A program made the position numbers and the translations under genes. From Alphaproteobacteria bacterium (GTDB lineage: Bacteria; Pseudomonadota; Alphaproteobacteria; Rs-D84): a stretch of DNA of 64,000 nucleotides. The stretch is taken from the NCBI GenBank assembly GCA_015062485.1, contig SUUO01000001.1:82101-146100 (forward strand). Reading direction: 5' to 3'. Positions 1,028 through 55,113 of the stretch are shown here, one piece after another. The number at the start of each line of letters is the position of its first letter. The stretch's first letter is position 1. The notes below the pieces were generated by a model. It searched no databases and was not told the origin of the DNA. It saw only the letters and a program-made list of their open reading frames with translations.

Positions 1028-1062
1028 ACATAAAAAATCCCGCATTTGCGGGATTTTTTATT
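1028..1062. terminator. bidirectional rho-independent terminator (cccgcaaatgcggg hairpin flanked by A/T runs)
   Basis: perfect stem-loop plus T-tract between convergent gap and the Cys-rich gene. Confidence 0.7.
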
Positions 1063-2014
1063 CACAACCCAAATCAGACCGCAAATCTGCATTCGTCGCG
1101 ACCGCATTTTTACATAATTTTGGGCAATTTAAACTACACAAACCAGCAATCGAAAAGTTTTGATAGAAAAAATTTTTATTTTCATCTACAACATTACACC
1201 AACATTTCGTGCCTTTTTCCTCTGTTTTGGTGCCGTTGATTATCTGATACTGTGTCCCAGATAAAGAATTACACACCCCAGTTACATTAGCGCACGTATC
1301 TGTATAATTACACGCTTCTTCATACGAATACATACCAGACTGGTCCATCATCCCATCAATCGGGCCAATACTGCAATCATATATTCCAACCACCGATGCC
1401 GGCGTGGTACCAGCAAGAACTACACTGGAATCAGCGGTCCTGGCCGACGGACACTGCGTGCACCCCGCGCTACAATTAAAACTAGCACTAAGCAAACCAC
1501 CGGTACCGCTTGATGTTGAGAATTCGCATTCTATATCAGATGAATGCCCGTAATATCCCGCAGCACAGCTAAAACTGTATTCGGTTGAACAGGTTGATGT
1601 TGTACTGTCTGGGTCGTTGCACACATCTAATCTTGTGTAATCATAGCCATCGGTTATAGGATACTGCATTATATAACCGGTCGGCTCGCAATCAGCATCA
1701 CTATCACATTCATCCTCGGTCTCTATTTCAACACACGTATCAACTGGCACAGATATTGGCGCGCCACACCCCGTAGCCATATAAACGGTAGATAATTCAT
1801 ATCCCGTCTTGCACGTTTGACACTCTGTCACTTGATATTGGGTAACATTATTAACTGTGGACGTACCAGAAACTTTGGTACATTTTGCAGCCTCATTCCG
1901 GATTGTTGTCAGGCAATTTTCCGCCAAAATCGATTGTATCAGCCCCCACGCATCACAAGACGCAAATATCCCCATCACCACCGCCGCAACCAAACCGACG
2001 TTTAGATTCGGCAC
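1058..2014 (-). CDS. secreted Cys/Ser/Thr/Gly-rich protein (family member A1)
   Basis: 318 aa with an N-terminal hydrophobic signal-like segment and ~30 Cys. N- and C-termini (MPNxxVGL... ...LGCE) are shared with 48624..49586. GTG start, no clear SD. Confidence 0.6.
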   Translation of the reverse strand: MPNLNVGLVAAVVMGIFASCDAWGLIQSILAENCLTTIRNEAAKCTKVSGTSTVNNVTQYQVTECQTCKTGYELSTVYMATGCGAPISVPVDTCVEIETEDECDSDADCEPTGYIMQYPITDGYDYTRLDVCNDPDSTTSTCSTEYSFSCAAGYYGHSSDIECEFSTSSGTGGLLSASFNCSAGCTQCPSARTADSSVVLAGTTPASVVGIYDCSIGPIDGMMDQSGMYSYEEACNYTDTCANVTGVCNSLSGTQYQIINGTKTEEKGTKCWCNVVDENKNFFYQNFSIAGLCSLNCPKLCKNAVATNADLRSDLGCE

Positions 2015-2020
2015 AAAAAA

Positions 2021-2150
2021 GAGGGATAAAATATGCAGAAATCAGGGATTTTTAATTATGAATTTATGCCGAGGAAAAACGTCCCATTGGATTCGGCATA
2101 TGTTTTTCGTCTCTATGCCGTGTATTATACCGTTTTGCGCGATTTTTATC
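2021..2150. promoter_or_regulatory. conserved ~130-nt 5' leader of the Cys-rich gene family (copy 1)
   Basis: near-identical to 49593..49722; core motif cgtcccattggattcggcat at 2080..2099. Confidence 0.6.
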
Positions 2151-2286
2151 AAGGCGTTTTTTGACATTTCAATGTTTTGATATCCGACCCCAGCAAATCT
2201 TGACAATTATCCTTTAAATTGCAACCGCCAAATTTAACAAACTGAACACGCATTTGATAAACAAGGTCAAATAATCAGAATAACAG

Positions 2287-2328
2287 AACGCCCACAATGG
2301 GGCGTTTGATTTTTGTGGCGGAGTATGA
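2287..2328. repeat. terminator-like repeat module aacgcccaNaNNgggcgtttgatttttgtggcggagta (copy 1)
   Basis: 25-nt exact identity (ggcgtttgatttttgtggcggagta) with 4165..4203; hairpin plus T-run. Confidence 0.5.
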
Positions 2329-2365
2329 TTTTATCACGACCAACCACATACAAATTCCAACCAAA

Positions 2366-4018: not shown

Positions 4019-4160
4019 ATTCCCTCGCCCCGCGGGTGGCGGGGCTGTGGGGCATTCCTGACGGTTTTGCCGTACTATGTTTGCAAAACCTACTCATTGT
4101 CGAACCCACGCCACTATCGTGGCTTTACCGGGTTCGAACCCCGATTTCGGCACAAAAATA
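4019..4160. other. conserved island-end block (shared motifs with 29341..29458, 9470..9660 and 62800..63038)
   Basis: motifs gggttcgacaatgagta, gaatgcccc(a/g)cag and ggggcgaggg directly abutting the DR. Confidence 0.4.
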
Positions 4161-4164
4161 AAAC

Positions 4165-4203
4165 GCCCATATCGGGCGTTTGATTTTTGTGGCGGAGTAA
4201 GAC
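4165..4203. repeat. terminator-like repeat module (copy 2)
   Basis: see 2287..2328. Confidence 0.5.
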
Positions 4204-5586: not shown

Positions 5587-8500
5587 TTAATAGCCCAACT
5601 CTTCTTCTTTTGCTACTTCTTGTTTGATGCATTCGTTCAGCCAGTCCAGCGAATCCTTTGCCCACATACGAACTAGTGGATTGGGATGCTCATGTAAATT
5701 CTGAAACAACGGAACATACTGTCTATAATAATCAGAAGTATTTCCCCACCAAGTATAATTATTTATACGGCTACTAATTATATTCAATTCATCCTTTGTT
5801 TCTGCTGTATCTATGAAATACTTTATTATTGGACTCCAATCTACTTGTTCGCATGAATTGTTTAATAGGCTCACTATTTCCATGATACAATTCCTGATAT
5901 TTTTTTGCATGTTTTTATCAACTGATTGTAAATATTCCGGAATCTGTTGATCTAAATGCATCGAAAACACATATGGCGACGCTCCATATTTACCATTAAA
6001 TCCATCCCCCAATAATCCCATCCATCCAGACAACCAAATACTATCTTCTTTAGCCATAGCGTTTAAAACATGCGGCAACATTACCGTAGGATGTTTTTTA
6101 ATTAAATTTTTTATTATTTTTGAAGCATCATTATTGTATTGCAATCCACGATAAGTGTCTGATGCGGCTGCCGTTTTAAACGCATCAAAAATAGTTAACG
6201 CCTCTTCTGGGTTCCAGTCTATTTTATGAATAATGTTACTTACATGATGCCCACTCATAGGATCTTTAAAAATAAATAGTATATTTTCTGTTTTTGCTAA
6301 GATATCAAATACCACTTTTTTACAATCTTCTGACAATACATTACCGCTATGCTGATAATAGTCCAGTGTTTCTACAATAAAACGACAAGAATCTGTTCCG
6401 AATGTATAGTATACCCCCCACAAGAAACTTATAACACGTTCTAAATCAACAGATTTTCTAAGATTGATACTAAGACCACCAATTTGTAATTGTAACAGTG
6501 AAATTTTTTTCTGTGCTATCAAGTCTAATATACTATCTACATCAGGATCCAAGAACCCACCATGAACGACCCAAATAAGCCTAATAATTCCATTTTTAGC
6601 TATCCATCTTTCATCTCCAAGAATCCTCGTTAGGATACCGTCTATATAAGAAGGATCTCGTTTCCATATTTCGTGCATAGCGACAGCGAGCAATGAATAA
6701 TTATCATTATCCATCGCCATATGTAACGCCATCAAACGATTTACAAACTCTTTATAATCCGTTATACAAGAGCCTATTCTGGATGCAAAATCATTAATAT
6801 TTCCAGCATTTTTACTTATGAAAAACGGCAATGAATCATATAAATGTTCTGGATTAGCCAAGTATGCGTCTGCAATTTCTTCCGATTTCTGCTTCATCAA
6901 AGAATGCGCATGTTTAAAATCTAGCTTGTCTTCTGTTTCCATAAAATACGCAACATCCCATTCTGATGGGACTATATAAAGCTCAAACAATGATTCTAGG
7001 TCTCTATCAGCTTTCGCCAGAAGCCTGTCTCTATACTCTATTAGTTTTTCAAAACCCTTGTCAGTGTTAAAACGTGAATTTGCTATAAAAGTTGGGATAT
7101 AATCCGGAAATTTTTCCAATAGAGATGAGACTAATGGTTCATATTTTTCAAATAATCCATTCATCAATAGAGGATTTGTTTTGTTACCTATGATCTTCAG
7201 CAAATCTTTTTTTAGCTCATCGTCGGCAGTATTGTTTATCTCTAGCAATATATTTCCCAAGGCGTCAAAATACGTTCCTACTTCAGACCATGTTTTTGGT
7301 TTATAATATGTTAGAGTTCGTGCCCCTTGAGATTCCGCTCCAGCCATACAGCTATAATGCCCACTGTTATCCAGACCTTTGTCTATCATTTTTAAGATTA
7401 TATTTTTTCCCTGCTTGAATTCTGGAATCAAAGATCGTAGCCAATTGATGCGTTGCTCCAAAGAGGCCTCTGTCGGGGCAAGAAAAACTTGCATTGTTTG
7501 AACCAACACACCTGTTGCATTATTTCCAATGCTCTCATTTTCTCCTTTTGCTAATCTGAACAAAAGTGCGGCTGCCCTTTCATACAAATCCCTATGAAAC
7601 ATTATTTTTTCTAATGTCCACACTATGCGTCTACGATGTTCAGAGATCTTATCCTTCATATCATCATCTGTCCACCCTTCAAAGGCATACTCTAATGAGT
7701 TCATTGCCAAGTCTGGTGCAATTTCAGCTAGTTGGCCGAATAACTCATTACTTGGCGAATTAAGCAATTCAGCATTAGAAAAAGGGGAAGTCTTGTCTCC
7801 GATGAAATATTTTACAAATTCTCTGACATTATCTAAAAATTTTATTTTTTTCATGAAACGCTCTTGCAAGGCAAAAGGCAACTCTTTGTAATATCTATTG
7901 ACCATATCTGGATGTGTTTTGTCATTCCACTCTCTTGCTAAATAAATAGCTAATGGAAACGGTTGCACAGAAATAGAAAATCCTTTTTGTTGTATTATTT
8001 TGCGTTCACTAAATTCGTTGTAAACTTCAAAAACTTTATTTTTATCAAGTTCGAATACCTCGATTATCTTGTCTATCTCATTTGGATCTGCCAACCCCAT
8101 ACCGCTATACCTACGTCCAGCAGACACCATTCCTGGCATACAGCCTATTTTAGTGAATAAAGACAAAACCCTAAGAATCTTTATTGTATCTGGTTCACAT
8201 TCACCCGTACGATCTCTCAAAAGCAATTTATATATGTCAGTATCCTTAAAACGCCCTAACTTTACAGTTTCGCCCCTTGACATAGCCTCTTTAATTTCTC
8301 GCGCAATATGTATCGCGAAGCGAGGAAAACCATCTGCGACCTTGACTACTGCCGCCCGCATATGCTCTTCAAGATCTGGAGCAATCTGCTTAACGATAGC
8401 AGCAACAACTTCATTAGATAACTTATTAAACTTTAGTTCTTCAGAATCATCATATGAATCATAATCTATTGTAACTAAAGTAATTTGGCCACCAGAAATA

Positions 8501-9369
8501 ATTCGTTTAATCGCTTGCAACTCATCTTTGTCACATTCATCAATAATTAATATAAACGGTTTATTTTGATCTAATGTTCTCAGAAACGGTATTAAAAAAA
8601 TTAGTTCGCATTTAGGCACATAAATTATTCTTCTCTTATCTTCTTTGGACATACGATTACACGCTTCCAAAACTGTGCGCGTTTTTCCTATTCCTGCCAA
8701 CCCACTAATATTAGATACTGGATTTTGTAATATACGAGCTTTTATCTCTTCAACAAAAGAATTTAGCCTATCATCTAATTGAAACTGATTTATGGCATCC
8801 CTAGCATTCCACTCATCAAGAGATTCGGCACCAACTTTAATCCACATCTCTCTCAAATCTGGCTTTAAATCGAAGATTATATCCTGATGCAAGTTAACCC
8901 AATTTTGCATATCTTCCGCATCTAGAAACACTGGGGTTGTGTTAGTAGCGCCAATATTATCTAGCTCATCTTGCATTGCTTTTATACGTGCTTCTTTAAG
9001 TTGTGATGGAATATGATCTTTTGTCGAAATAATAACAAAATCGTAGTCTGCTAACAATTTTTTGCACAATGCTGTATGGGCAGGACTAGCTATTTCCTCA
9101 GCACACTTGGCCGGCGACATACTCGTCGCCTTTAATTGAAAAATTGTTTGAGTTGACGGAATAAATTTATCTAGTACAGTTTTTATTTTACCATGTAAAA
9201 TGGCATCTATTCCCCCATCTCTAACGTTTTCGTTAGAACAGACCTCAAAATCCCAAGGCTTGAACCCCTCTGCAAACAACAGCTGTTTTGTGAGCCTAGT
9301 CAGTTCCACGTCATTTAAATTCTTAATAGTATCAATATCTATTTCATAGCAGCTCATATAATCTCCCAA
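5587..9369 (-). CDS. Mrr-like nuclease + P-loop (STAND-like) NTPase + long helical-repeat protein; Avs/antiviral-STAND-like defence candidate
   Basis: 1260 aa. aa51-55 DGGID and aa78-80 QLK match the Mrr_cat PD-(D/E)xK spacing. Walker A GLAGIGKT (aa223-230), Walker B ILIIDECD (aa273-280). About 950 aa of C-terminal repeats. ~35% GC. Confidence 0.6.
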   Translation of the reverse strand: MGDYMSCYEIDIDTIKNLNDVELTRLTKQLLFAEGFKPWDFEVCSNENVRDGGIDAILHGKIKTVLDKFIPSTQTIFQLKATSMSPAKCAEEIASPAHTALCKKLLADYDFVIISTKDHIPSQLKEARIKAMQDELDNIGATNTTPVFLDAEDMQNWVNLHQDIIFDLKPDLREMWIKVGAESLDEWNARDAINQFQLDDRLNSFVEEIKARILQNPVSNISGLAGIGKTRTVLEACNRMSKEDKRRIIYVPKCELIFLIPFLRTLDQNKPFILIIDECDKDELQAIKRIISGGQITLVTIDYDSYDDSEELKFNKLSNEVVAAIVKQIAPDLEEHMRAAVVKVADGFPRFAIHIAREIKEAMSRGETVKLGRFKDTDIYKLLLRDRTGECEPDTIKILRVLSLFTKIGCMPGMVSAGRRYSGMGLADPNEIDKIIEVFELDKNKVFEVYNEFSERKIIQQKGFSISVQPFPLAIYLAREWNDKTHPDMVNRYYKELPFALQERFMKKIKFLDNVREFVKYFIGDKTSPFSNAELLNSPSNELFGQLAEIAPDLAMNSLEYAFEGWTDDDMKDKISEHRRRIVWTLEKIMFHRDLYERAAALLFRLAKGENESIGNNATGVLVQTMQVFLAPTEASLEQRINWLRSLIPEFKQGKNIILKMIDKGLDNSGHYSCMAGAESQGARTLTYYKPKTWSEVGTYFDALGNILLEINNTADDELKKDLLKIIGNKTNPLLMNGLFEKYEPLVSSLLEKFPDYIPTFIANSRFNTDKGFEKLIEYRDRLLAKADRDLESLFELYIVPSEWDVAYFMETEDKLDFKHAHSLMKQKSEEIADAYLANPEHLYDSLPFFISKNAGNINDFASRIGSCITDYKEFVNRLMALHMAMDNDNYSLLAVAMHEIWKRDPSYIDGILTRILGDERWIAKNGIIRLIWVVHGGFLDPDVDSILDLIAQKKISLLQLQIGGLSINLRKSVDLERVISFLWGVYYTFGTDSCRFIVETLDYYQHSGNVLSEDCKKVVFDILAKTENILFIFKDPMSGHHVSNIIHKIDWNPEEALTIFDAFKTAAASDTYRGLQYNNDASKIIKNLIKKHPTVMLPHVLNAMAKEDSIWLSGWMGLLGDGFNGKYGASPYVFSMHLDQQIPEYLQSVDKNMQKNIRNCIMEIVSLLNNSCEQVDWSPIIKYFIDTAETKDELNIISSRINNYTWWGNTSDYYRQYVPLFQNLHEHPNPLVRMWAKDSLDWLNECIKQEVAKEEELGY

Positions 9370-9419
9370 AAAACGACTCTTATTGAGTAAGTATATATAA
9401 TATAATGTTCTAAAATCAA

Positions 9420-9660
9420 GCTATTAACATTCAACTTGATTTAATTTGTTTCTCGCGGTACACTTTCCTTGAATCCAATGGGAATTGGGTTCGGGGCTGT
9501 GGTGGCCCGCAGACGCGGCATTTGTCGTTAAAATCCCCCGACTTTGGTCGGGGAGCCGTTTGCTATAAAACAGGGCTTGCCCGAAGGCTGCGGAGCATTC
9601 GTTTGCTGACACCAACTCCCCGACCGTCAATTCCGTTGGCGGTCATTAATTTATAAAAAG
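9420..9660. other. structured non-coding leader upstream of the Avs-like gene
   Basis: hairpins ccccgactttggtcgggg and gggaattgggttc; motifs gaatgctccgcag and ccacagccccg shared with island-end blocks. Confidence 0.35.
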
Positions 9661-9670
9661 GGAGAAGCCA

Positions 9671-9919
9671 ATGGCAAAATCCGCAGGTGTATTACACTCT
9701 ACTATTGAGATTTCTGACAACATTCTGATTCAAGAAAGTACTTATTCATATATTGACGGTATAGACGCCAAAAGACCAAACGAAAAAACAGGCGTATCCA
9801 AACGCGGTTGGAGATGGCTTGGCTCCACAGAAGAAAGCAAAAAAGTCATTAATGGTGCTTTATGGATTGTGCGTGATATTTATATTAAGAACAGCAAAAA
9901 ATATAAGCTACCAAAATAA
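9671..9919 (+). CDS. hypothetical small protein
   Basis: 82-aa ORF with GGAG-like RBS. Confidence 0.35.
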   Translation: MAKSAGVLHSTIEISDNILIQESTYSYIDGIDAKRPNEKTGVSKRGWRWLGSTEESKKVINGALWIVRDIYIKNSKKYKLPK

Positions 9920-9930
9920 GGACGGATAAA

Positions 9931-23134: not shown

Positions 23135-24961
23135 CTAGCCCCGGCCCTTGTATTTTACGGTCCCAGAAGTTATTGGCAGGGTAAAACTAAAACCGCTGTC
23201 ATTGAATTTGGTCATCTTACTGACATAGCAATCGGTTATGGCACCGTCAACATCCTCGCTTCCTCCGGTACTGGTTGTGCCAGTGGGACACGGACTTGGT
23301 TCCACAGAATCCGCAGGACAGTAATAGCCGCCATCGCACGGGATTGGTTCTGAACTTTTTTCCGGGCAATAGAATCCAGCTGGACATTTTTCCTGGGCAG
23401 CACTGCCGGCGGGACAGTAATAGCCGCCATCGCACGGGATTGGTTCTGAACTTTTTTCCGGACAATAGTGCCCCGCGGGACACTGTGTTTGGGATGCGCT
23501 TTTGGCGGGACAATAATATCCGCCATCGCACGGGATTGGGGTTGTGGTCTTGACTGGGCAATAGTGGCCCGCATCACATTCGGTTTGAACATTATTTTTA
23601 CAATAATAGCCGGCCGGACAGTCCGTATAACTGGGGCTTAGGCTAACTTGATTACTGCTAAATTCACCAGATTGCGATTGTTCAATGGTCTTGAAATTAT
23701 CGCCAACGTTTATCACACGACCGGAATATGTCCAGTTTTTAAACAACTGACCACCGGGAACAGTGGTTGTCGGTGTATAATTAATCTCACAATTTGAATT
23801 ATATGTACACGTTTCCGTTTTATTGGAACCATCGGCATATTTTACCGTATAGTTTTTCCAAGAATATTGTCTGTATAAGTTTATTGTATCATATTCGTCT
23901 ATACTGCACTGCATAATACCGTTACAAGCGGTAATGATATCATCACTGTTGCTAAACGAATTTGTTGACCACATTGGTGCCCCACAAGCACTAGCACCGA
24001 TCCCATCAAGCATTGGGCAAAAATACCAACCAGTAAAATTTTGCTTGGGCACTGTAACGGTTACGACAGAATTCAAACTGGTCCCATCGTCACCGTATAC
24101 ACCATCTAAATCCAAATCGTATCCCGTGCCGGGCAGATATTTTATGTACCGACTGGATGTGGATGCAGAGGTACCAGTGTTCAAATAGATTTTATATGTT
24201 CGTTGCACACAGTTACGTTCCCCAATATTTGTGGTGTTCACCCGACCGGCAGTATCATAGTATCCGTATCCATCGTCACAGTCACAATTATTACCCGCGG
24301 CATTTGTGTGGGCGTTGGTACCACACGTGCCACAACCGTACATTTGACTGTCAACCATACCCGTATCTAGTATAAAAGTACTGGTTCCATCAGTATAATC
24401 ACGCTGATTAAGAACGTAAAACAGCCCATAATCCGAAGAGGTACTGGCCGCATACAGACGCACCAATCGGGTTTCACGATCAAATGTTCCCATAGAACAC
24501 TTTTCGCAACTAATCTGATAACGACAGTCTGATGTAGCATTTAACGCATTACATTTTGAGTTTATATAGAGTTTTAATCCATAGTCGGCGGGACACGAAA
24601 CCAAAATTGGGCAAAAACCATCCGTATTACCATATGCACGATAAGTGCCAGAGGAGTCAAGGTATTCTGTTGTAGCGGTTAGCCAAGAAATTGTAGGTTG
24701 AGTCTCTGTATAACTGGATACAAGAACACTATCAGTCAATGAATTGGTACACTCATAACACTTGTACGACAGCGGTCCATTGGTAAAATCGCGCGTATAT
24801 CCCCAATAGCACGTATAGGCATCCGATGCGCTGTTGCAATTCAACATAGTGTCATATCTCGTACATCCAGAGCCGGTTGTTCCCGTACCATCACCACCAA
24901 CAACCGCGAGCGCGCCGGATGTCACAAGGCAAAGAAAAGTCAGTAAAACTATCTTGTTCAT
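23135..24961 (-). CDS. secreted Cys-rich protein with tandem ephrin-receptor-like (GCC2/GCC3-type) repeats
   Basis: 608 aa, signal peptide; repeats CPAGHYCPEKSSEPIPCDGGYYCPA x4-5 near the C-terminus. Confidence 0.65.
   Translation of the reverse strand: MNKIVLLTFLCLVTSGALAVVGGDGTGTTGSGCTRYDTMLNCNSASDAYTCYWGYTRDFTNGPLSYKCYECTNSLTDSVLVSSYTETQPTISWLTATTEYLDSSGTYRAYGNTDGFCPILVSCPADYGLKLYINSKCNALNATSDCRYQISCEKCSMGTFDRETRLVRLYAASTSSDYGLFYVLNQRDYTDGTSTFILDTGMVDSQMYGCGTCGTNAHTNAAGNNCDCDDGYGYYDTAGRVNTTNIGERNCVQRTYKIYLNTGTSASTSSRYIKYLPGTGYDLDLDGVYGDDGTSLNSVVTVTVPKQNFTGWYFCPMLDGIGASACGAPMWSTNSFSNSDDIITACNGIMQCSIDEYDTINLYRQYSWKNYTVKYADGSNKTETCTYNSNCEINYTPTTTVPGGQLFKNWTYSGRVINVGDNFKTIEQSQSGEFSSNQVSLSPSYTDCPAGYYCKNNVQTECDAGHYCPVKTTTPIPCDGGYYCPAKSASQTQCPAGHYCPEKSSEPIPCDGGYYCPAGSAAQEKCPAGFYCPEKSSEPIPCDGGYYCPADSVEPSPCPTGTTSTGGSEDVDGAITDCYVSKMTKFNDSGFSFTLPITSGTVKYKGRG
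23300..23600. repeat. intragenic tandem repeat (~94-nt unit x3+) encoding the CxxGxYC repeats
   Basis: ccatcgcacgggattgg recurs at 23331, 23425 and 23520. Confidence 0.7.
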
Positions 24962-32662: not shown

Positions 32663-32932
32663 TTATGACATTGGACACACGTTGGTATATTCATACGTCC
32701 CGGATTCATCCGTAAAAGACATACCCGCCGGCGCATACAGCCAACAATCATACGTTGCATTATTCAGGCAGGAATTTAACTTTCTTGCCGCCACATATCC
32801 CGTTGGACACGCAGTCGCCATAATAAAATTAGAACGCGTAACGGTTATATACCCTGTGGGGCAACTGGTGGATGGGGCGACGGAATATGCACACATCGGC
32901 ATAAACGCAATTATAAATGCTATTTTTTTCAT
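32663..32932 (-). CDS. small secreted 8-Cys protein (cassette copy 1, gene 2)
   Basis: paralog of 53024..53299 (APSTSCP..YIT...CP.G...DCW.YAP.GMSFTD.SGTYE..VC). Confidence 0.6.
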   Translation of the reverse strand: MKKIAFIIAFMPMCAYSVAPSTSCPTGYITVTRSNFIMATACPTGYVAARKLNSCLNNATYDCWLYAPAGMSFTDESGTYEYTNVCPMS

Positions 32933-32944: not shown

Positions 32945-33382
32945 CTAGTCAGAGATTAAATTTGGTAAATAGTAATCATTTACAAGATCTTTGCTGTAAA
33001 AAAGCCCCAAATCGGTGTCACCCCAAGAACAACGTTGGGAACACGTATAAAATCCACCAAAACCCGGCGTATACCCAACCGAAACCCATTTTGATTCCAC
33101 CGGATATGTCATTTTACACCAACAGCCATCATCCACCCTATGTGAGTCATCTGCAACACCCGTTTCCAGACTATCTGCGGTGCTGCCCTCAGGTTGATAT
33201 TCACCAAGGAAAATGACCCCTCTGTATCTTTGCCCGCCACACTGAATTATCCAATCCGAATTTCCATTGGTTAAATTCGTACAGGGGGTATTTGCATCAA
33301 CCTGCTTAACGCATTGGGTTGCGGCGATTGCCGGCGTGGCAAGAATCGTACCAAGCGCGGTTAAGGTTAAAAGTTTTTTCAT
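32945..33382 (-). CDS. secreted Cys-rich protein (cassette copy 1, gene 1)
   Basis: AAGGAG RBS, signal peptide ending ATPAIAATQC; counterpart at 53304..53756. Confidence 0.55.
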   Translation of the reverse strand: MKKLLTLTALGTILATPAIAATQCVKQVDANTPCTNLTNGNSDWIIQCGGQRYRGVIFLGEYQPEGSTADSLETGVADDSHRVDDGCWCKMTYPVESKWVSVGYTPGFGGFYTCSQRCSWGDTDLGLFYSKDLVNDYYLPNLISD

Positions 33383-33444
33383 TTGTCTACTCCTTTTCTT
33401 TTGTTTTATTCGCGAAAAAACAAAAACCACCGAATAAATTCAAG

Positions 33445-33513
33445 TGGTCAGGAGGTTAGAAACAATCTTACGAATTGTGTGCTTATTCAATATATTCGCA
33501 ACCCTCCTGACCA
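33445..33513. promoter_or_regulatory. conserved palindromic leader element gtcaggaggtt-N42-aaccctcctgac (copy 1)
   Basis: 11/12-bp inverted repeat; whole ~70 nt conserved with 53807..53876. Confidence 0.55.
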
Positions 33514-33680
33514 ATAAAGTTCAGGAGTTTTATTTCATCAAAACACAACCGTCCGGCATATTGCCGCTTATTTATGTTTCGACGCGTAAGTCGGGTTTCT
33601 ACACCCCATTATGGCAAAGTCACCATAACAATCACATTATAACCAAATGTTTCCCCTTACGCAATCGCTTAGATAAACTT

Positions 33681-34135: not shown

Positions 34136-34138
34136 TTA

Positions 34139-46187: not shown

Positions 46188-46598
46188 TTATAAATAAAAC
46201 AGCAATTCATCAATATCCAATATATACCCACGCGAACGTGCCCAATCTGGATTTACATCACCGTGATGAAAGCGTGTTGCCCCACGACACATATCCGGCA
46301 ATCCACCCATCAACATTCGACCAACAACCCGCAAGCACATTTGAAATCCGCGTGAAAGTGGGGGGGCCGATAACATTTCGTGACGAACGGATGTTTCATT
46401 TAACGATTCAAACATATCGGTATCAGATATTATTTGTGCGAAACTTCTGCCGCTGGCACGTGATGCATTGTTTATCATTGATACCAGTGCCTCGACCGCG
46501 GTCAGTGATGATGCGGATGTTTCCGCATAAACAACACGCGCAATTTGATATGATAACTTTTTCGTTTCGTCTGGATTTTTTATCAGTCTTAGATTCAT
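46188..46598 (-). CDS. SleB/CwlJ-type cell-wall hydrolase (phage endolysin-like)
   Basis: Hydrolase_2-like VVYAETSAS ... RFHHGDVNPDWA motifs. Confidence 0.55.
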   Translation of the reverse strand: MNLRLIKNPDETKKLSYQIARVVYAETSASSLTAVEALVSMINNASRASGRSFAQIISDTDMFESLNETSVRHEMLSAPPLSRGFQMCLRVVGRMLMGGLPDMCRGATRFHHGDVNPDWARSRGYILDIDELLFYL

Positions 46599-46786
46599 TT
46601 CTGAAAATCCCCCCATATGATTTGTGACAAATAAAAAAACCGCACAAAAATGTGCGGCTAAAAAACAGACAAAAAAAATCCCCAACAAATGTTGTGGGCA
46701 TAATTTATGTCTTTGATGGTGCAAAGTATATCATATTTTTAAATAAAAGTCAAGCACATATTTACAAAACCGCAGAAATCCGCCAC

Positions 46787-47473
46787 TTACAGCATTGTTA
46801 TTTCATCACCATACACCAATAAGTACCGTGTATCACGACGCAAAATCAATGCGCCGTTTTCATTTATTCCGATCAATTCGGCGGGCGCCCCCTGGTACAG
46901 AACATCTTTGTTTAAATGTTCAACCAACTGCATCCAACGGGCGCGTACAAGCGAAAATTCTGTGCGACGCCATTTATCCAAATTGCGCATCAACACCCCC
47001 AGCAATTCATTTGGTGACAAATCCGGGATATAATTATCCAACTTGGTCGTTTTGTATTCGCGTACCGTTGGGTTGGTCTGAATATTTATACCGATGCCCA
47101 CAATGACATAGGGGCCAGAATATTCGATTAAAATTCCACAAACCTTTTTACCATCAATCAAGATATCATTTGGCCATTTAATTGTTGGCGCAATGCCATA
47201 TGTTGCCAACGTTTCCGCCACCGCCACCGCCACCGCATACGCCAGGCGCCCATCACGCACATCGCAATCGTAAATAAAACTGACGTACAAATTACCGTGA
47301 TGTGATACCCATTTACGACGATGACGCCCCCGCCCCGCACTTTGCGCCTGGGCAACAACCGCCGTACGATTTGCACCGTGTCCGGTGGCAATTAATTCGT
47401 GCGCGGCGTCCTGGGTGCTGGGGATTTTATCAAAAGAAAATACCTTATATCCGGCCAAGTTTATACACCCCAT
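46787..47473 (-). CDS. birA: biotin--[acetyl-CoA-carboxylase] ligase
   Basis: GRGRHRRKW motif; no N-terminal HTH. Confidence 0.8.
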   Translation of the reverse strand: MGCINLAGYKVFSFDKIPSTQDAAHELIATGHGANRTAVVAQAQSAGRGRHRRKWVSHHGNLYVSFIYDCDVRDGRLAYAVAVAVAETLATYGIAPTIKWPNDILIDGKKVCGILIEYSGPYVIVGIGINIQTNPTVREYKTTKLDNYIPDLSPNELLGVLMRNLDKWRRTEFSLVRARWMQLVEHLNKDVLYQGAPAELIGINENGALILRRDTRYLLVYGDEITML

Positions 47474-47882
47474 TATTTGTAGTAATAAAATCGCGACCAA
47501 ATTTTCGGCGCAACTGATAAATCGCAGTATCCACCGTATGCGTAGATGTGTCCGCCGCATATCCCAACGCACGTTTCAAATCTGATGATGACATACCGCC
47601 ACTTTTATAAAGTGCGATTACCAATTTCCCCTGAATATACGGCAATGTTGTTGGCGTGCCAAAAATCTGGCCCAGCAAACGCGAATTATCCGTCGCCGAC
47701 AGTATTCGCGCCTTTAATTCCATTGGATGAACCGGGTCTGAGATGTCCAGATTCGCCATATCGACATCCGTTACCGTTGGCGCATCCAATACAGTGGCGT
47801 TTAATTCGGACAAAATTTGCCGCCAAATTGGATCATCTGCAAATATTCTTATTCCCGATAGCATATAGATACAATACCCCAT
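47445..47882 (-). CDS. OmpR/PhoB-type winged-helix DNA-binding protein without a canonical receiver domain
   Basis: C-terminal Trans_reg_C-like region (LKRALGYAAD..THTVDTAIYQLRRKFG..GVYKLG). Confidence 0.5.
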   Translation of the reverse strand: MGYCIYMLSGIRIFADDPIWRQILSELNATVLDAPTVTDVDMANLDISDPVHPMELKARILSATDNSRLLGQIFGTPTTLPYIQGKLVIALYKSGGMSSSDLKRALGYAADTSTHTVDTAIYQLRRKFGRDFITTNNGVYKLGRI

Positions 47883-47964
47883 AGCACCCCGATTGTCCAA
47901 CAAAAAACCACGTGCATAGTGCGCGTGGTTTTTGGGGTGTCGAAACCGTGCATAAAAAGTGTGC

Positions 47965-48213
47965 TTAGTCGCGTCCAGAATCCTGGGGCGAATCAATATA
48001 CTTGGTAAAGTCTTGGATTCGCGCCCCGGTCGACGACAAAATCTTGGAAATACTGTTTGTCGACGGCCATCTGGGCTGTCCTTCTTTGGACCAACGCTTG
48101 CTTTTATTAAAGGTTGTTGGGTCCAAACCACTGCACTTTGCCAACCCCGAACAAGACATACCGTGTTCGGTTGCAAAGCGTTCTATTGCCCGCCATACAT
48201 CTTCGTGGGTCAT
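47965..48213 (-). CDS. small HTH DNA-binding protein
   Basis: 82 aa; HTH near the N-terminus. Confidence 0.4.
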   Translation of the reverse strand: MTHEDVWRAIERFATEHGMSCSGLAKCSGLDPTTFNKSKRWSKEGQPRWPSTNSISKILSSTGARIQDFTKYIDSPQDSGRD

Positions 48214-48623: not shown

Positions 48624-49586
48624 TTATTCATCACACCCCAATGTCGCACGAACATCTGGATTGGAACTTACCACACTTTTACACGCAGTTAGGCAACCAC
48701 TACTACACGCCGCATTTTGCCCACCAAAGGTACTAATAAACAAGTATTTGTCATTAACGTGGCACCAACAATTTGACCCCTGCGCAATAACTGGTTCGCC
48801 AATGGTATACGCTGCATCGGCGGTAGTACTGCTGCATACGCGTGTTATTTCTTCGCAAACGCCGACACCCGAATGCGGACAATATGTATCCATTACAAAT
48901 GTTCCGACCAAGTCCTCATACGTTCTGTATGCAACGGGAATAGAGGAAGAAGCGGGACCAATTTTACAATTCGCCAATGTGGTGCTGGGGGTCTTGGTAT
49001 TGTCGTTTAAAGAATAATAACCATTTGCCGTCCAACCACATAATTTTGTGTTGGTGTTTTGACCGTATGTATCCGGCAAGCAGGGACATTTTGTACAGTC
49101 CCCCGATGCAGACGCGGATAATGTTTTACGTTCACCATAATACTGACTATCACAAAAACAGTACGAATTAGAGCATGTAAATGTAAGAATTTCACCATCG
49201 CCCTCACCAACAGACTTAACTGTGTATGCAATCCCGGCCACAGAGTCACTTGATTTATCTTGAATTGTCAACTGGTTAGGATCGGAACACTTACAGTTAT
49301 ATATTATGTCTGTTGCCGCCTTGTTTACACAACAATACAGATATTGCGTATCCTCTATGCCAATAATATCGCACCGTGTTGCCGCGACCGCGGTACCGTA
49401 ATATGTTGAACCATACTGATTTTGACACCATGTATTACACGCCGGCGCCAGTGACGCATCTGAATTTCCGGTCAGTAGACAAGGCTGCGCCCAACCAGTA
49501 TTTGATATATATTCACCTGCAAATGCACTTGACGAAACCAATCCTAATAATATTGCCGCAAACAAACCGACTTTTGGATTCGGCAC
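48624..49586 (-). CDS. secreted Cys/Ser/Thr-rich protein (family member A2)
   Basis: paralog of 1058..2014 with identical leader and GTG start. Confidence 0.6.
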   Translation of the reverse strand: MPNPKVGLFAAILLGLVSSSAFAGEYISNTGWAQPCLLTGNSDASLAPACNTWCQNQYGSTYYGTAVAATRCDIIGIEDTQYLYCCVNKAATDIIYNCKCSDPNQLTIQDKSSDSVAGIAYTVKSVGEGDGEILTFTCSNSYCFCDSQYYGERKTLSASASGDCTKCPCLPDTYGQNTNTKLCGWTANGYYSLNDNTKTPSTTLANCKIGPASSSIPVAYRTYEDLVGTFVMDTYCPHSGVGVCEEITRVCSSTTADAAYTIGEPVIAQGSNCWCHVNDKYLFISTFGGQNAACSSGCLTACKSVVSSNPDVRATLGCDE

Positions 49587-49592
49587 AAAAAC

Positions 49593-49722
49593 GGAGGATA
49601 AAATATGCAGAAATCAGGGATTTTTAATTATGAATTTATGCCGAGGAAAAACGTCCCATTGGATTCGGCATATGTTTTTCGTCTCTATGCCACGTATTAT
49701 AACGATTTGCGCGATTTTAGGC
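49593..49722. promoter_or_regulatory. conserved 5' leader (copy 2)
   Basis: ~92% identical to 2021..2150. Confidence 0.6.
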
Positions 49723-49726
49723 AAGG

Positions 49727-50650
49727 CTATTTTTCAAATACTGAAAAGATTTCCCAGTGCGTACTGCCCACGAATTGGTCGACCGGAATTAAAGTACACA
49801 GTTTATATCCGCCGCGTGTTAATATTTCCATATCACGACGAAATGTTTGCGGATTGCACGAAACATAAATCACACGCCCGACATTACTTTTTATCAATTC
49901 CCGACACTGGGCATCGGCACCGGCACGTGGCGGATCCATTACCACACAATCATATGTATTCAGCATTCCGACCGTTAAGGGGCGCTTGAACAAATCCCGC
50001 TTTGCCCCCGTACCAACAACATCAAAACCATCCGCATTCAGCGCGAATGTAAAATTCCCCAGTCCACAAAATAAATCCGCCACACGCCCCGCACCGTGCG
50101 CCGCGTGCACAACCATATTACGCAACGCATCCGCACCACTGATTGTGGGCTGTAAAAATGCGTGTGATGGATATTCAATGGTTTTATCACCAAAACTTAT
50201 TACGGGTTTAGATTTTTCAAAAATAATTTTATCGTTCCAGGTTACACGTAAAACGGGTAAATCTAGAATCGCGTTCCTTAATTCTGGGCCGACATACGGG
50301 ACAGACGATGTTATATTCACATCCACCCCATTATCACACACCGTCACCAGGCACGCCCCCGCACCCGTCCACGGTAATCCCGCCAATGCCGGCAAGACCG
50401 CGTTAATTTCCGGTGCCATATTTGGACAATGCGTTATTGGGATAATATTTTTTGTGCCGCCCTCAAACAAACCAAAGACACCCGGCGCAAAACAAAAGTC
50501 CCCACGACGGCGCAATCCCGCATCAATCCACACCGGTGCATCCGTCATTGGCAATTTTGGCAGTGTCGAAATCTTAGCATCGTGATAATCTGGGGCGGTA
50601 AAATCAAACTTGCACCCGCCACAGCGACCAAAAAAAGGACAGGTCTTCAT
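49727..50650 (-). CDS. SAM-dependent RNA (uracil-C5) methyltransferase, RlmD/TrmA family
   Basis: N-terminal Cys cluster FGRCGGCKF; methyltransferase motif DLFCGLGNF. Confidence 0.7.
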   Translation of the reverse strand: MKTCPFFGRCGGCKFDFTAPDYHDAKISTLPKLPMTDAPVWIDAGLRRRGDFCFAPGVFGLFEGGTKNIIPITHCPNMAPEINAVLPALAGLPWTGAGACLVTVCDNGVDVNITSSVPYVGPELRNAILDLPVLRVTWNDKIIFEKSKPVISFGDKTIEYPSHAFLQPTISGADALRNMVVHAAHGAGRVADLFCGLGNFTFALNADGFDVVGTGAKRDLFKRPLTVGMLNTYDCVVMDPPRAGADAQCRELIKSNVGRVIYVSCNPQTFRRDMEILTRGGYKLCTLIPVDQFVGSTHWEIFSVFEK

Positions 50651-52173: not shown

Positions 52174-52998
52174 ATGAAGAAAAACACAGATAAAAAAATA
52201 GCACTGGTTGCGGGGGCGTTGGACCTGCCGTTTTTTACGCGGGATGCACTGAAACGCGCGGGATGGGACGTGTTTGTTGTTGGGTTAAAGAATTTTGTTA
52301 ACCCGGAACTAAACCCCGATTTGACCGTACGCCTGGGGGGCAGCGGGCGCGCCATACGCGAATTTAAACGCCGCGGCATCAAAAAAATTACGATGGTTGG
52401 GGCGCTGGGGCATCCGAATTTTTCGGACATTCGACCGGACTGGTGGACATTTTGGACATTGTTAAAAATATTAAAAAATCAACGGGGGTATGATTCTATG
52501 GCGGTTGCATTAAATAGCGTTCTGGAAAAACAGGGATTTGAAATTGTCGCGGCCCAAGATTTGGCCCCAGAATTGGCCTTTGAAACGGCGGGTGTACAAA
52601 CCAAGACCAAACCAACCAGCGCCGACAAAAAGAACATTGAACGCGCAATAGAGGTTTCACACACCATTGGCGCCGCCGATATTGGCGCATCCGTCGTTGT
52701 TGATAAACAAGTTATCGCGGTCGAGGCCGCCGAGGGAACGGCACGTATGCTGAACCGTGTGGTTGAAATGCGCACAAATCACAAGCGTAAAAGCGGTGTC
52801 TTTGCAAAAATGACGAAACCCGGCCAGGACTTACGCATTGACATTCCGGCGATTGGCGTTGACACGGTGAATGCGGTGGCGGACGCAAACCTGCGTGGGA
52901 TTGTGGTAAATACCAAGACGTGCTTTGTCGTCAACAAACCCGCCGTTATAAAACAGGCCGACAAGCGTGGAATATTTATCGTCGCATTGGACGAATAA
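52174..52998 (+). CDS. lpxI: UDP-2,3-diacylglucosamine pyrophosphatase LpxI (DUF1009)
   Basis: KKIALVAGALDLP N-terminus and overall pattern. Confidence 0.65.
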   Translation: MKKNTDKKIALVAGALDLPFFTRDALKRAGWDVFVVGLKNFVNPELNPDLTVRLGGSGRAIREFKRRGIKKITMVGALGHPNFSDIRPDWWTFWTLLKILKNQRGYDSMAVALNSVLEKQGFEIVAAQDLAPELAFETAGVQTKTKPTSADKKNIERAIEVSHTIGAADIGASVVVDKQVIAVEAAEGTARMLNRVVEMRTNHKRKSGVFAKMTKPGQDLRIDIPAIGVDTVNAVADANLRGIVVNTKTCFVVNKPAVIKQADKRGIFIVALDE

Positions 52999-53023
52999 AA
53001 AATCCCGCGAAATGCGGGATATT

Positions 53024-53299
53024 TTAATCCATTGTGCATACGTCGGTAAATTCATATGTTCCAGAATTGTCTGTGAAAGACATTCCCACCGGCGCATACA
53101 TCCAGCAATCAATTGATGGATTCTGGGCCAGGCACGAATCTGCACTGCCCAAAGAAACTGCTCCTGATGGGCATGTTGTGGCGATTGTAATTTCTGGGGT
53201 GTCAATCGTGATGTATTCCGATGGACATGACGTTGATGGGGCCTCGGCAAATGCAGGCCAAGGCATCAATATAAATAATGCAATAATTTTGTGTTTCAT
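53024..53299 (-). CDS. small secreted 8-Cys protein (cassette copy 2, gene 2)
   Basis: paralog of 32663..32932. Confidence 0.6.
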   Translation of the reverse strand: MKHKIIALFILMPWPAFAEAPSTSCPSEYITIDTPEITIATTCPSGAVSLGSADSCLAQNPSIDCWMYAPVGMSFTDNSGTYEFTDVCTMD

Positions 53300-53303
53300 G
53301 TTT

Positions 53304-53756
53304 TTACTCTTTTATGTCTAAAATCAGATTACGAAAAGTTTCGTCTTGCATGAACGATTGTGCACAATTTCGCGCGCAATACGCCTCACCTGTATTGACA
53401 CCTACCTTAGGATGCGGTACAACGAAATATTTTCCTGTATATGGCTGTGTCATTTTGCAGACGCATATTGCCTGGTCGGTCATTCCTTGATAACTCTGAT
53501 CGTAAATATATTCGTTGGGTAATGCGTTATATAACCCTTCCATGCTGTAATTTGTAGTCATAACAGCAACACCACCTACAACAGATGGGCAATTATCAAC
53601 GTCCGATGCCACATTCCATAGCATCCCAGTATAATTGTTACCGTCTTCATAATAAAAATTACAATGGTCCCAATTGTTATTTATGCACCGTTGTGCCGCC
53701 GTAACTGGCGTGGCTAATAATGCGCCCGTCATTGATAGAATAAATATTTTTTTCAT
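53304..53756 (-). CDS. secreted Cys-rich protein (cassette copy 2, gene 1)
   Basis: AGGAG RBS; same gene order and leader as copy 1. Confidence 0.55.
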   Translation of the reverse strand: MKKIFILSMTGALLATPVTAAQRCINNNWDHCNFYYEDGNNYTGMLWNVASDVDNCPSVVGGVAVMTTNYSMEGLYNALPNEYIYDQSYQGMTDQAICVCKMTQPYTGKYFVVPHPKVGVNTGEAYCARNCAQSFMQDETFRNLILDIKE

Positions 53757-53806
53757 TGTTTTTTCTCCTGTTCTTTTACAAGTAAAAAACCACGCGCAAA
53801 AACGAG

Positions 53807-53876
53807 TGGTCAGGAGGTTAGTAACAATCAAGAAGAATTGTGTGCTTATTCGATATATTCGCAACCCTCCTGACAC
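53807..53876. promoter_or_regulatory. conserved palindromic leader element (copy 2)
   Basis: see 33445..33513. Confidence 0.55.
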
Positions 53877-54384
53877 CATATGTGTTTTCAGGAGTTTTTC
53901 TTATCTTTCGTCTGGGAATCATATGAAAAAACACGCCAATGGCGCGCCGGATTTCGATTCCAAACGCTTCTTGCACGGGTTACTACACCCCGTTATGGCA
54001 AACCGCCATAACACACCTATTATATCCGATTGTTTTTTTATATGCAAACAGTAAGATAAATAAAAGTTTAGTGTTAGTGGATAGTGTTTGTGTGGCACTT
54101 CATAGTGCTTCTACTCTCCACTTACGGCTCACCACTAATCACTAACATAAACTTTTATTTTGCGAAGTAATTAATATTAAAATTATAAAAAAATGGGAAC
54201 CTTGTTTTTATAAACAATCCATTGAAAATACGAAATAAAATCCTAAAAAACACTGCCGAATCCAAACGGTCCTTTGTTTTCAACATTTCTTAGGCTTATT
54301 TTACCCCAGTTTTGCGCCACCAGTCAACCAGATTTTATGCCGAATCCAAAGGACCGTTTTCCTGGGATTAAAGGAGGAAAGAAA

Positions 54385-55113
54385 ATGAAAAAATTGTTTT
54401 TAATCGCATTAGGACTGGCAATCTGGCCACCAGACACGTCCGCCACAACCGTCTATTGCAGTACGGTTACCTGTGGTGATTATGATGAAATAAACAGCGC
54501 AGGCTTCTGTGGCAGTTCATTCAAATGGTGCAAGCCCAGTTTTCAAAGCACATTTGGCAACACCACATATTACAGCGAATATAAGTACTGTATGCCATAT
54601 GGAGGGTATTATTTATACAACGGCGAGAATTACAAAGCTTCACACAACATTGTTTGTTATAGCGACCAAGAAATATGCGAAACAGTAGCCCAACTCCAAG
54701 TCCCGTGGACTGACTATGGAGACTATTCGCATCCTGCGAAAGGCTACTTTATCGGCGGCAAGGGTTGTACCAGTGGCACAACAAAAACATCAGACTATTC
54801 TGTTGACACTTATGGATGTCCCGCCGGCGAATACAATAGATATGGCGTCCGCGCAATTGAAAGCGATGGCTCATCAGGCTTGGGTTGCAGCAGCTGTTCC
54901 CAAGGATATTATTCTGGTCCTGCATCTATTTCATCAGATTGCGTACAATGCCCATTGGCAGAAGATATTTATACAGACTCTGCACTTAGCGAACTGCCAC
55001 GTGGCACAACAGGCACAAAACAAACAGCTAAAACCGATTGTTATTTACCAATTGGTACATATTATGATGAAACAGGCAAAATTAATATAAATACTACAGC
55101 GTGCACATATTAA
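54385..55113 (+). CDS. secreted Cys-rich protein (family member A3)
   Basis: AAGGAGG RBS, signal peptide; leader motifs at 54252..54271 and 54336..54355. Confidence 0.6.
   Translation: MKKLFLIALGLAIWPPDTSATTVYCSTVTCGDYDEINSAGFCGSSFKWCKPSFQSTFGNTTYYSEYKYCMPYGGYYLYNGENYKASHNIVCYSDQEICETVAQLQVPWTDYGDYSHPAKGYFIGGKGCTSGTTKTSDYSVDTYGCPAGEYNRYGVRAIESDGSSGLGCSSCSQGYYSGPASISSDCVQCPLAEDIYTDSALSELPRGTTGTKQTAKTDCYLPIGTYYDETGKININTTACTY

Follow-up and report, generated by a model that had tools for sequence, protein, structure and literature searches.

We describe a set of eight cysteine-rich genes, labelled A, B, C, D, s1, s2, t1 and t2, in a 64-kb stretch of DNA from the metagenome-assembled genome (MAG) of an uncultured alphaproteobacterium of the gut with a reduced genome, close to 'Candidatus Enterousia' in the order Rs-D84 (contig SUUO01000001.1, positions 82,101 to 146,100). 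This whole stretch is referred to as the window, and positions are counted from its first letter. The genes are members of a lineage-specific, multi-copy set of modular, cysteine-rich proteins, predicted to be exported, which share leader sequences and C-terminal modules, vary in repeat number and undergo accelerated divergence. On balance, we consider it probable that the set is an exported repertoire, co-regulated and diversifying, whose proteins are probably located at the surface and mediate contact with a partner or host. As such, the genes are the best candidates for how a partner-dependent microbe touches other cells.

All eight open reading frames (ORFs; Table 1) exist, the four large ones at the coordinates given by a preceding reading of the bare sequence, made without database searches, and together they take up 9.2% of the window, whose GC content is about 43%. 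This sequence-only reading had described the four larger products as cysteine-rich, and composition bears it out: the pooled set contains 6.6% cysteine, as opposed to 1.19% in a baseline of 22 housekeeping and phage proteins from the same window. Its description of a duplicated two-gene cassette of smaller proteins also proved accurate, s2 and t2 being paralogues of each other, as are s1 and t1. Each of the eight N-termini consists of a short region followed by a 10-residue hydrophobic core, and AXA-type cleavage sites, read heuristically by eye, are discernible in seven of the eight proteins (ALA-V, AFA-G, TSA-T, AIA-A, AFA-E, VTA-A and AYS-V). Inspection, likewise heuristic, revealed a lipobox-like FASC in protein A, the only such case in the set, while s2 reached 15 bits with the Mplas_variab_LP model, whose cutoff is 22. 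From these N-termini we infer, on good grounds, that all eight proteins are probably exported. The cell envelope is indicated to be of the diderm type by LpxI and by an outer membrane protein (OMP) beta-barrel gene in the window. The product of gene A is absent from sequence records in its exact form because gene callers picked other starts.

Full-length BLASTP comparisons linked only A with B (26% identity, E 8e-13), s1 with t1 (52%) and s2 with t2 (28%), leaving C and D unrelated to the remaining proteins at that level. The single expanded family which had been proposed therefore dissolves into three pairs by full-length homology, and is recovered only through the modules and the leader which its members have in common. 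Two modules were modelled with hidden Markov models (HMMs) built solely from proteins outside the window and searched against the 368 window ORFs of at least 49 aa. M1 is a C-terminal module of approximately 50-70 aa with the pattern CxxCP...SI..CY.PAG..F.D..G.Y.F...C.Y, the first half of which is a CxxCP unit of the Ephrin_rec_like type and the second half 'CY.PAG..F.D..G.Y.F...C.Y'. Its HMM matched B (E 4e-17), C (4.5e-7, or 8e-11 with a set of distant relatives) and A (1e-5), as well as, more weakly, t1 (6e-4 to 7e-3) and s1 (4e-3 to 1e-2, or 3e-4 to 7e-4 in a smaller search set), with no further window ORF under 0.1. The C-terminus of the D family aligned to M1 by hhalign with a probability of 94.8% (E 5.5e-8). 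M2 is a 'CWC' domain of approximately 70 aa (G.P...G.NCWC[RK]...W[VF]F...C...C...C...R..L), matched by A (6e-9) and B (3e-8). By transitivity, M2 may also be assigned to s2 and t2, through an s2-like protein of the sheep-colon MAG RGIG5353 (L037) which is 33% identical to s2 and matches M2 at 1e-11; t2 reached E 0.0026 in a smaller search. M1 and M2 are fused in A and B and lie on adjacent genes in s2-s1 and t2-t1, such that each cassette resembles the C-terminal half of A or B divided between two genes.

Relatives of these proteins are scarce. An exhaustive search of 1.84 billion representatives recovered 32 relatives of A and B at E<=1e-3, and the pattern seen among them indicates that the A/B proteins are modular; a word-indexed homologue search with B recovered just one relative, and with the CWC profile four. 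The CWC domain may stand by itself or be fused to M1, and in large proteins it is repeated in two to five tandem copies. One such protein, P0085 (6001-8796 of L042, 1-14796, from an organism with 40% GC), carries three CWC domains and stands among giant proteins with Flg_new repeats (2332, 931, 301 and 2080 aa), in a region from which the Enterousia-type leader described below is absent; Flg_new is carried by P0085 itself and by a second CWC-domain protein, P0094. No Pfam family covers the second half of M1 or the CWC domain, and Pfam scans of the eight proteins and nine D orthologues returned nothing significant. NCBIfam, including its sorting-signal models, gave no match above cutoff to the eight proteins, P0094 or the A/B relative P0086. 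Neither D nor the profiles made for A/B and for CWC matched any sequence in PDB, and a confident AlphaFold2 (AF2) model of B, with a predicted local distance difference test (pLDDT) score of 82, found no fold match in PDB (best E 0.55) or BFVD (best E 0.38).

The shared leaders are the second feature which unites the set. The 150 nt upstream of A and B, together with their first ~10 codons, are 92% identical (180 nt), compared with 26% for the proteins. The promoter in this class I leader is a near-perfect sigma-70 type, matching at 11 of 12 positions. Downstream of it, ATGCCGAATCCAATGGGACGTTTTTCC is readable as a short upstream open reading frame (uORF), MPNPMGRFSSA, and a second box, TGCCGAATC, follows 85 nt on at the GTG start (MPNLNVGL / MPNPKVGL), with no preceding Shine-Dalgarno sequence. 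A, B and C share a near-identical leader of ~120 nt; in C (class II) the boxes are 84 nt apart and their cores are mutually complementary, giving a 23-nt inverted repeat with 83% complementarity. Paired direct copies of TGCCGAATCC, 84-85 nt apart, are thus seen at 2002-2099, 49574-49671 and 54253-54349, and the cores which follow them, AAACGGTCC and GGACCGTTT, are reverse complements. The second TGCCGAATCC copy of class I forms the start of the ORF, and its N-V-G synonymous positions (AAC GTC GGT) are invariant across genomes, which points to constraint on the nucleotide sequence itself.

Scanning one genome per species (596 Gb) for the leader motif TGCCGAATCCAANGGNNCGTTTT yielded 28 loci, all in MAGs of gut Alphaproteobacteria (Enterousia sp. 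and isolates from roe deer, sheep and mouse), where we estimate about one match by chance for 20 specified bases. Sixteen of these lie in a single genome, RGIG4037, distributed over 10 contigs. Every one of the 24 complete ORFs downstream of the leader encodes a hydrophobic N-terminus and 5.8-14% cysteine, and these ORFs fall into many unrelated sequence groups. When A, B and C are added, M1 or M2 is detectable by HMM (E<0.01) in about 13 of 27 leader-linked proteins, and four more show C-terminal similarity by BLAST. M1 was found in 9-13 ORFs of the ~110 kb fetched from RGIG4037, and M2 in none. A scan of the metagenome collection for the leader motif gave six loci, only two of which (L045 and L046) have a class I leader, resembling the one in the mouse-gut MAG MGBC118324; on inspection the remaining four look like chance matches.

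The upstream regions of s2 and t2 form class III, whose identity is 83% though the proteins themselves are 28% identical. The s2 leader has a fold z-score of -2.0, and the region upstream of s2 is also kept in an Enterousia MAG (82% over 336 nt). Three mutually exclusive pairings can be drawn in class III (CTCCTGA, GTCAGGAGG and CCTCCTGAC), succeeded by a weak hairpin and a U-run in an attenuator-like arrangement. Across the window only tRNAs reach the gathering score of Rfam 15; the A leader matched nothing in Rfam at E<=1, and the s2 leader had one match at chance level. A proposed 8-bp hairpin in class II was discarded, being paired in 80% of cells, equal to shuffles, with one compensatory change. 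No inverted repeats bracketing the promoters were found, and hence no invertible promoter or phase switch, nor was there a long homopolymer tract in the leaders inspected. The only recombinase in the window belongs to a separate phage-like island beside tRNA-Ser. The leader might serve as a binding site for a regulator, as a translational switch linked to the uORF, or as a homology arm in recombination. A bidirectional terminator hairpin after A (1030-1061, ATAAAAAATCCCGCA/TGCGGGATTTTTTAT) recurs after t1 (52993-53026) with 94% identity over 34 nt, and the variable genes therefore share 3' ends in addition to 5' leaders.

Table 1. Positions of the cysteine-rich genes, their modules and leaders, and the podovirus-like genes within the window.
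Feature	Coordinates	Strand	Description
A	1058..2014	-	318 aa, predicted to be exported, Cys-rich; N-domain + M1 + CWC/M2
A, M1	1304-1462		aa 185-237
A, M2	1070-1279		aa 246-315
B	48624..49586	-	320 aa, A paralogue; N-domain + M1 + CWC/M2
B, M1	48879-49097		aa 164-236
B, M2	48639-48839		aa 250-316
C	54385..55113	+	242 aa, predicted to be exported, Cys-rich; M1 at C-terminus (54940-55110)
D	23135..24961	-	608 aa, multi-domain, predicted to be exported; signal peptide, Cys-rich N-domain, two InlB-B-repeat-like domains, repeat stalk, M1-type C-terminus
D, repeat stalk	23291..23620	-	seven 16-aa C-x2-G-x-Y-C-P-x8 units, aa 448-557
D, C-terminal module	23138..23290	-	CPTGTTS...DCYVS..T.F.D..F.F.LPI; M1 homologue
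s2	32945..33382	-	145 aa, CWC-type, predicted to be exported
s1	32663..32932	-	89 aa; signal peptide + CPxGY units + M1
t2	53304..53756	-	150 aa, s2 paralogue
t1	53024..53299	-	91 aa, s1 paralogue with M1
Class I leader of A	2015..2152	-	TTGATA-17-TATAAT promoter + ~110-nt 5' region with ATGCCGAATCCAATGGGACGTTTTTCC
Class I leader of B	49587..49734	-	92% identical to that of A
Class II leader of C	54253..54384	+	two TGCCGAATCCAA copies 84 nt apart, then Shine-Dalgarno, ATG
Class III leader of s2	33383..33560	-	11-bp GGUCAGGAGGG/CCUCCUGACC stem; 83% identity to t2 upstream, 116 nt
Class III leader of t2	53757..53898	-	83% identity to s2 upstream
Portal	34139-35368
Large terminase (TerL), C-half	35395-36291
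DnaB-like	36149-37816
Helix-turn-helix (HTH)	37892-38899
TerL, N-half	39587-40228
Tail fibre, N-terminus	40170-40718
Tail tube B	41108-42835
Tail tube A	42835-43440
Capsid	43699-44526
Scaffold	45328-46032

Protein D had been credited by the sequence-only reading with four to five tandem units whose Cys/Gly/Tyr spacing matched the GCC2/GCC3, or ephrin-receptor-like, repeat of eukaryotic surface proteins. We count seven 16-aa C-x2-G-x-Y-C units, equivalent to about 3.5 double units, and their cysteine spacing (C-x5-C-x8/9, with no CxxC pair and a cysteine directly after the tyrosine) differs from the canonical PF07699 pattern C-x2-C-x2-G-x-[YF]-x(5-8)-C-x2-C. The one canonical unit of the GCC2/GCC3 type, CSSCSQGYYSGPASISSDCVQCP ('CSSCSQGYY...CVQCP'), is in C, while A and B have a single CxxCP each. 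Direct comparison failed: the D repeats scored 7.1 bits (E 6.6) in hmmscan on PF07699 (Ephrin_rec_like), whose gathering threshold is 23.1 bits, full-length A, B, C and D gave no match to this family at E<=1, and the best E among nine D orthologues was 0.48. The joint lack of a profile match and of signal peptides had been named as grounds for giving up the comparison; the direct match is indeed missing, but signal-peptide-like N-termini are present.

Less direct comparisons, however, do suggest kinship. A phmmer search with D retrieved many PF07699-annotated eukaryotic and metagenomic proteins (E 1e-50 to 1e-15) from fish, molluscs, an apicomplexan and metagenomes, and the D units align to a 'G-x-Y-C-P-x-G-S-x2-P-x2-C-P-x-G-T-Y' sub-type which falls inside Pfam's own PF07699 matches. 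In profile-profile comparison by hhalign with 13 Pfam-verified PF07699 instances, themselves drawn from proteins retrieved with D or A/B, which qualifies the figures, probabilities reached 98.3% for the D repeats (E 2.4e-14, reversed control E 0.22), 92% for the D C-terminus (E 6.7e-7) and 86% for M1 (E 4.6e-6), where reversed controls gave E 0.2-0.4. Two A/B relatives with M1 and M2, P0086 and P0087, pass the PF07699 threshold outright (26.8 and 30.9 bits), the domain overlapping the start of M1. We thus regard the D units as distant bacterial relatives of the GCC2/GCC3 class, a variant which stops short of Pfam membership.

The AF2 model of D has a pLDDT of 67 overall and above 90 in the repeats. 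Searched whole with Foldseek, its top PDB match was the Chlamydomonas mastigoneme protein Mst1 (E 9e-8), with far weaker, non-significant matches to ELAPOR1 (E 7.5e-3), EphA4 (E 0.035), the EphA2 cysteine-rich domain (CRD; E 0.2) and 4-1BB (E 0.25); global TM-scores are low (0.09-0.2) because a multi-domain model was searched whole. Residues ~250-440 are modelled as two small beta-grasp-like domains, for which Foldseek gave an InlB B-repeat match (probability 0.9-0.98, E ~1e-2, 9e-3 at 0.98) over only ~100 residues; Pfam detected no PF09479 (Flg_new) in D or its orthologues. Full-length homologues of D number only nine and have 20 or more invariant cysteines. Orthologues carry 1, 4, 7 or 11 units, and the length of the stalk is therefore variable; in the repeat DNA of D, Tandem Repeats Finder reports a 96-nt period in 2.3-2.8 copies with 78-85% identity.

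Comparison with related genomes places the variation in the coding regions. The exact D protein is recorded from 22 contigs, among those read, under the name 'MAG: Alphaproteobacteria bacterium' (E7009_00550). Parts of the window are 94-97% identical in nucleotide sequence to RGIG5353, and identity to a 'Candidatus Enterousia sp.' MAG is 83%, with gene order kept. Relative to RGIG5353, GAPDH, RecG and M48 peptidase are 97-99% identical in amino acid sequence, with ratios of nonsynonymous to synonymous divergence (dN/dS) of 0.02-0.08, while the first 374 residues of D are 78% identical with a dN/dS of 0.59 at a dS similar to that of these three genes. A dN/dS value for LipB was left out of account, its two sequences being out of register. 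Where A lies in the window, the nucleotide match with RGIG5353 ends exactly at the A stop codon; in place of A, beside a 99%-identical GAPDH, RGIG5353 has the same leader before a different cysteine-rich gene which ends in M1, and whose 302-aa product is 33% identical to A over the first ~95 residues only. Relative to the Enterousia MAG, B is 53% identical in amino acid sequence and TrmA, OMP, LpxI and LipB 85-92%. Divergence or replacement thus proceeds far more quickly in the coding regions than in the leaders or the housekeeping genes beside them. The MAG to which the window belongs contains one more paralogue, P0080 (E7009_04460), at another place; a variant of this protein is encoded next to B on a different contig, and a third s2-like gene lies just beyond the window. 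Contigs L003 (9275-9982) and L004 differ in that P0116, a 235-aa paralogue made up of a B-type N-domain and M1, precedes B on one of them; on that contig different housekeeping genes stand in place of TrmA, and the rearrangement breakpoint lies exactly at the B leader.

How might such a set function? We propose that the proteins would be exported by the Sec pathway and held stable by disulfides, and that the cell envelope would either display or release them, that the common leader would allow expression of the genes as one regulon, and that the products may act as adhesins or variable surface antigens contacting a partner cell or host. Diversifying selection, together with recombination between leader-flanked genes, would then generate variation from strain to strain. 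The surface-type folds modelled for D, namely InlB B-repeat-like domains and a repeat stalk, are counted in favour. Genomes of Enterousia and the order Rs-D84 are smaller than 1 Mb and without a tricarboxylic acid cycle, respiratory chains or the standard transporters, and the bacteria are predicted to live on other cells as obligate symbionts or parasites (PMC12306168); a role in attachment or evasion fits this predicted dependence. Fast protein evolution in a lineage predicted to be partner-dependent makes host interaction plausible, and the partner could be another microbe instead of the animal.

Several observations weigh against this proposal. The export calls are heuristic, the surface location is deduced, and a system which could secrete or anchor the proteins was not identified. 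Disulfides are assumed, yet the lineage is without respiratory chains (PMC12306168). The role of the leader is read solely from conservation, RNAalifold returned -6.4 kcal/mol for class II with no covariation, and D is preceded by none of the three leader classes. Direct tests of M2 are weak for s2 (E 0.06, rank 3 of 368) and t2 (E 0.27). Finally, dN/dS is below 1 in both comparisons, in which relaxed constraint is inseparable from diversifying selection.

A more specific version of the proposal, which we consider unlikely as it stands, would have dozens of variable exported M1-tagged proteins bind non-covalently to CWC-domain proteins, with the leader acting as a translational switch and as a homology arm for cassette swaps. 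The switch would be composed of the uORF, two competing TGCCGAATCC boxes and the start codon devoid of a Shine-Dalgarno sequence, and the large tandem-CWC proteins found elsewhere would be scaffold-like. The argument derives only from the pattern of M1/M2 fusion and splitting and from the ratio of many M1 to few M2. If true, it would describe an antigenically variable attachment organelle in a partner-dependent bacterium of <1 Mb, and a display system undescribed in bacteria.

Other explanations of the set must be set beside the proposed contact repertoire. D, and with it the CxxC units of C and of the A/B relatives, might derive from surface proteins of animals or protists and engage host receptors by mimicry. 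PF07699 is regarded as eukaryotic in origin, its rare bacterial cases being ascribed to horizontal transfer (PMC6993872), and the D repeats, similar to this family in profile and fold, match PF07699 proteins of fish, molluscs and an apicomplexan at E 1e-38 to 1e-23. These matches, however, amount to just 30-45% identity over low-complexity Cys/Gly/Pro/Tyr units, the nearest non-orthologous ones are unnamed metagenomic proteins, and P0010 and, more weakly, P0067 and P0072 bear NHL or beta-propeller domains of bacterial type. Since D also falls below the Pfam threshold with a differing cysteine pattern, and the module sits in a lineage-specific family with bacterial leaders where eukaryote-like flanking domains are absent, we think mimicry quite improbable. 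That the proteins are instead periplasmic, or metal- or redox-active, with cysteines that bind metals or stay reduced in this anaerobe, is a doubtful proposition which we rate lower still. A signal peptide in a diderm cell ensures export only as far as the periplasm, and respiratory chains of the kind that normally reoxidise DsbB are missing from the lineage (PMC12306168); but the cysteine patterns (C-x2-G-x-Y-C, CxxC...CxxC) are typical of disulfide ladders, the fold matches are to extracellular disulfide-rich proteins, neither His/Cys metal-site motifs nor cofactor families (Pfam, NCBIfam) were encountered, and such extreme variability in sequence and copy number is unusual for enzymes or metal carriers.

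Rapid evolution and the duplicated two-gene cassettes of small, cysteine-rich exported proteins would also be expected of secreted toxins, effectors or bacteriocin-like peptides, the cassettes representing pairs of toxin and partner. We hold this to be very unlikely, given that Pfam and NCBIfam returned no toxin, bacteriocin or immunity family, that immunity or transporter genes are not adjacent, and that both cassette genes encode signal peptides and have modules in common with the large repeat-bearing proteins. The position of some of the genes could further suggest cargo of the T7-like element in the window, whether as morons or as genes for lysogenic conversion: s2-s1 comes immediately after portal-Bbp19 and shares its strand, B precedes the LipB-scaffold-capsid-tail cluster, and the neighbourhood upstream of B differs between contigs L003 and L004. 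Yet A, C, D and t2-t1 are located among housekeeping genes, the 16 leader-linked genes of RGIG4037 are as dispersed as noted above, the sole leader-motif match in IMG/VR is a chance occurrence inside a coding region of an unrelated contig with 59% GC, the B model has no BFVD counterpart, and signal peptides and numerous cysteines are ill-suited to virion proteins assembled in the cytoplasm. Phage cargo is thus extremely unlikely, and as a general explanation it was rejected on account of the scattered loci, the chance-only IMG/VR match and the empty BFVD search.

The T7-like element itself is a T7/BPP-1-like podovirus structural module at 33900-48200. Its large terminase is split into N and C halves by ~3.3 kb on the opposite strand, an insert which encodes a DnaB-like helicase, an HTH protein and a 218-aa ORF, and its tail fibre is cut down to the N-terminal adaptor. 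The cluster is identical across several contigs (L003-L005), with the B-LipB edge syntenic in the Enterousia MAG, and may be either a decayed prophage or a domesticated element like a gene transfer agent. It also contains (44745-45353) a 202-aa Lys/Ala-rich ORF composed of 15/45/90-nt tandem repeats (45 nt x 8.6 copies). A second phage-like island, 5587-17967, ends at tRNA-Ser (17877-17967) and carries a terminase (11084-12535), DUF5681, a ParB-N6 methyltransferase, DUF2924, a large serine recombinase (15156-16745) and Abi_C, along with a 1260-aa ORF which matches neither Pfam nor PHROG. The 3' end of tRNA-Pro (29221-29297), at 29295-29337, is repeated 210 nt downstream at 29505-29547 (88% over 43 nt), resembling an att-like scar beside an ORF for a small membrane protein (29537-30013). 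A 53-nt direct repeat with 85% identity (2276-2328 and 4151-4202) flanks the ABC-F gene region.

What is described here is in part already known in kind, as variable exported families occur in reduced-genome bacteria and cysteine-rich repeats of the GCC2/GCC3 sort are familiar. M1, M2, the A/B fold and the leader are undescribed in the libraries searched (Pfam, NCBIfam, PDB, BFVD and Rfam), the leader being a candidate cis-regulatory element absent from Rfam, and repeats related to Ephrin_rec_like, usually deemed eukaryotic, are found here within a native bacterial multigene family. Rs-D84 and Enterousia are widespread in animal guts, and the only paper with an analysis of these genomes names just 'hypothetical membrane-bound proteins' for cell contact, with no word on the modules or the leader (PMC12306168). 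Contact proteins would fill a gap in the picture of partner dependence. The leader-linked set offers a searchable list of candidates for the interface of attachment or antigenic variation, which the 20-base motif can retrieve from any genome of the lineage.

Comparable systems are known from both bacteria and eukaryotes. Like PF07699 proteins (SVEP1, MEGF-like proteins, ELAPOR1, the Eph receptor CRD and, by fold, Mst1), D is built of short Cys/Gly/Tyr-rich units in an extended stalk with predicted disulfides; unlike them, its setting is bacterial, with a signal peptide, InlB-B-repeat-like domains and an M1 C-terminus, and EGF, CUB, Sushi and kinase domains are missing. The resemblance of D to the InlB B-repeat (PF09479) would be one of fold over ~100 residues, without a Pfam match. 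Cohesin-dockerin systems provide an analogy only, M1 being a short C-terminal module which ends many otherwise unrelated exported proteins; M1 and CWC have no relationship to them in sequence or fold, and docking would be a Rosetta-stone argument. A further comparison is with the variable surface (lipo)protein families of reduced-genome bacteria, such as the Vsp/Vsa/Vlp systems of Mycoplasma. These differ in that the present genes are dispersed as opposed to occupying one locus and lack a clear lipobox (A possibly excepted), and in that neither an invertible promoter nor inverted repeats on its flanks nor a homopolymer switch was found; nor are Mycoplasma Vsps rich in cysteine. In both, nevertheless, a very small genome encodes numerous exported paralogues, a conserved 5' region (in class I including the start of the signal peptide) precedes divergent, repeat-containing coding regions, and repeat numbers vary between strains. 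The variant-specific surface proteins (VSPs) of Giardia and the immobilisation antigens of ciliates are eukaryotic, anchored by transmembrane segments or glycosylphosphatidylinositol, and controlled epigenetically or by mechanisms of the RNA-interference type. By description, however, they too are secreted families rich in CxxC or cysteine and in Gly, Thr and Ser, in which, as in the proteins of the window, a conserved C-terminal segment is joined to an otherwise variable remainder.

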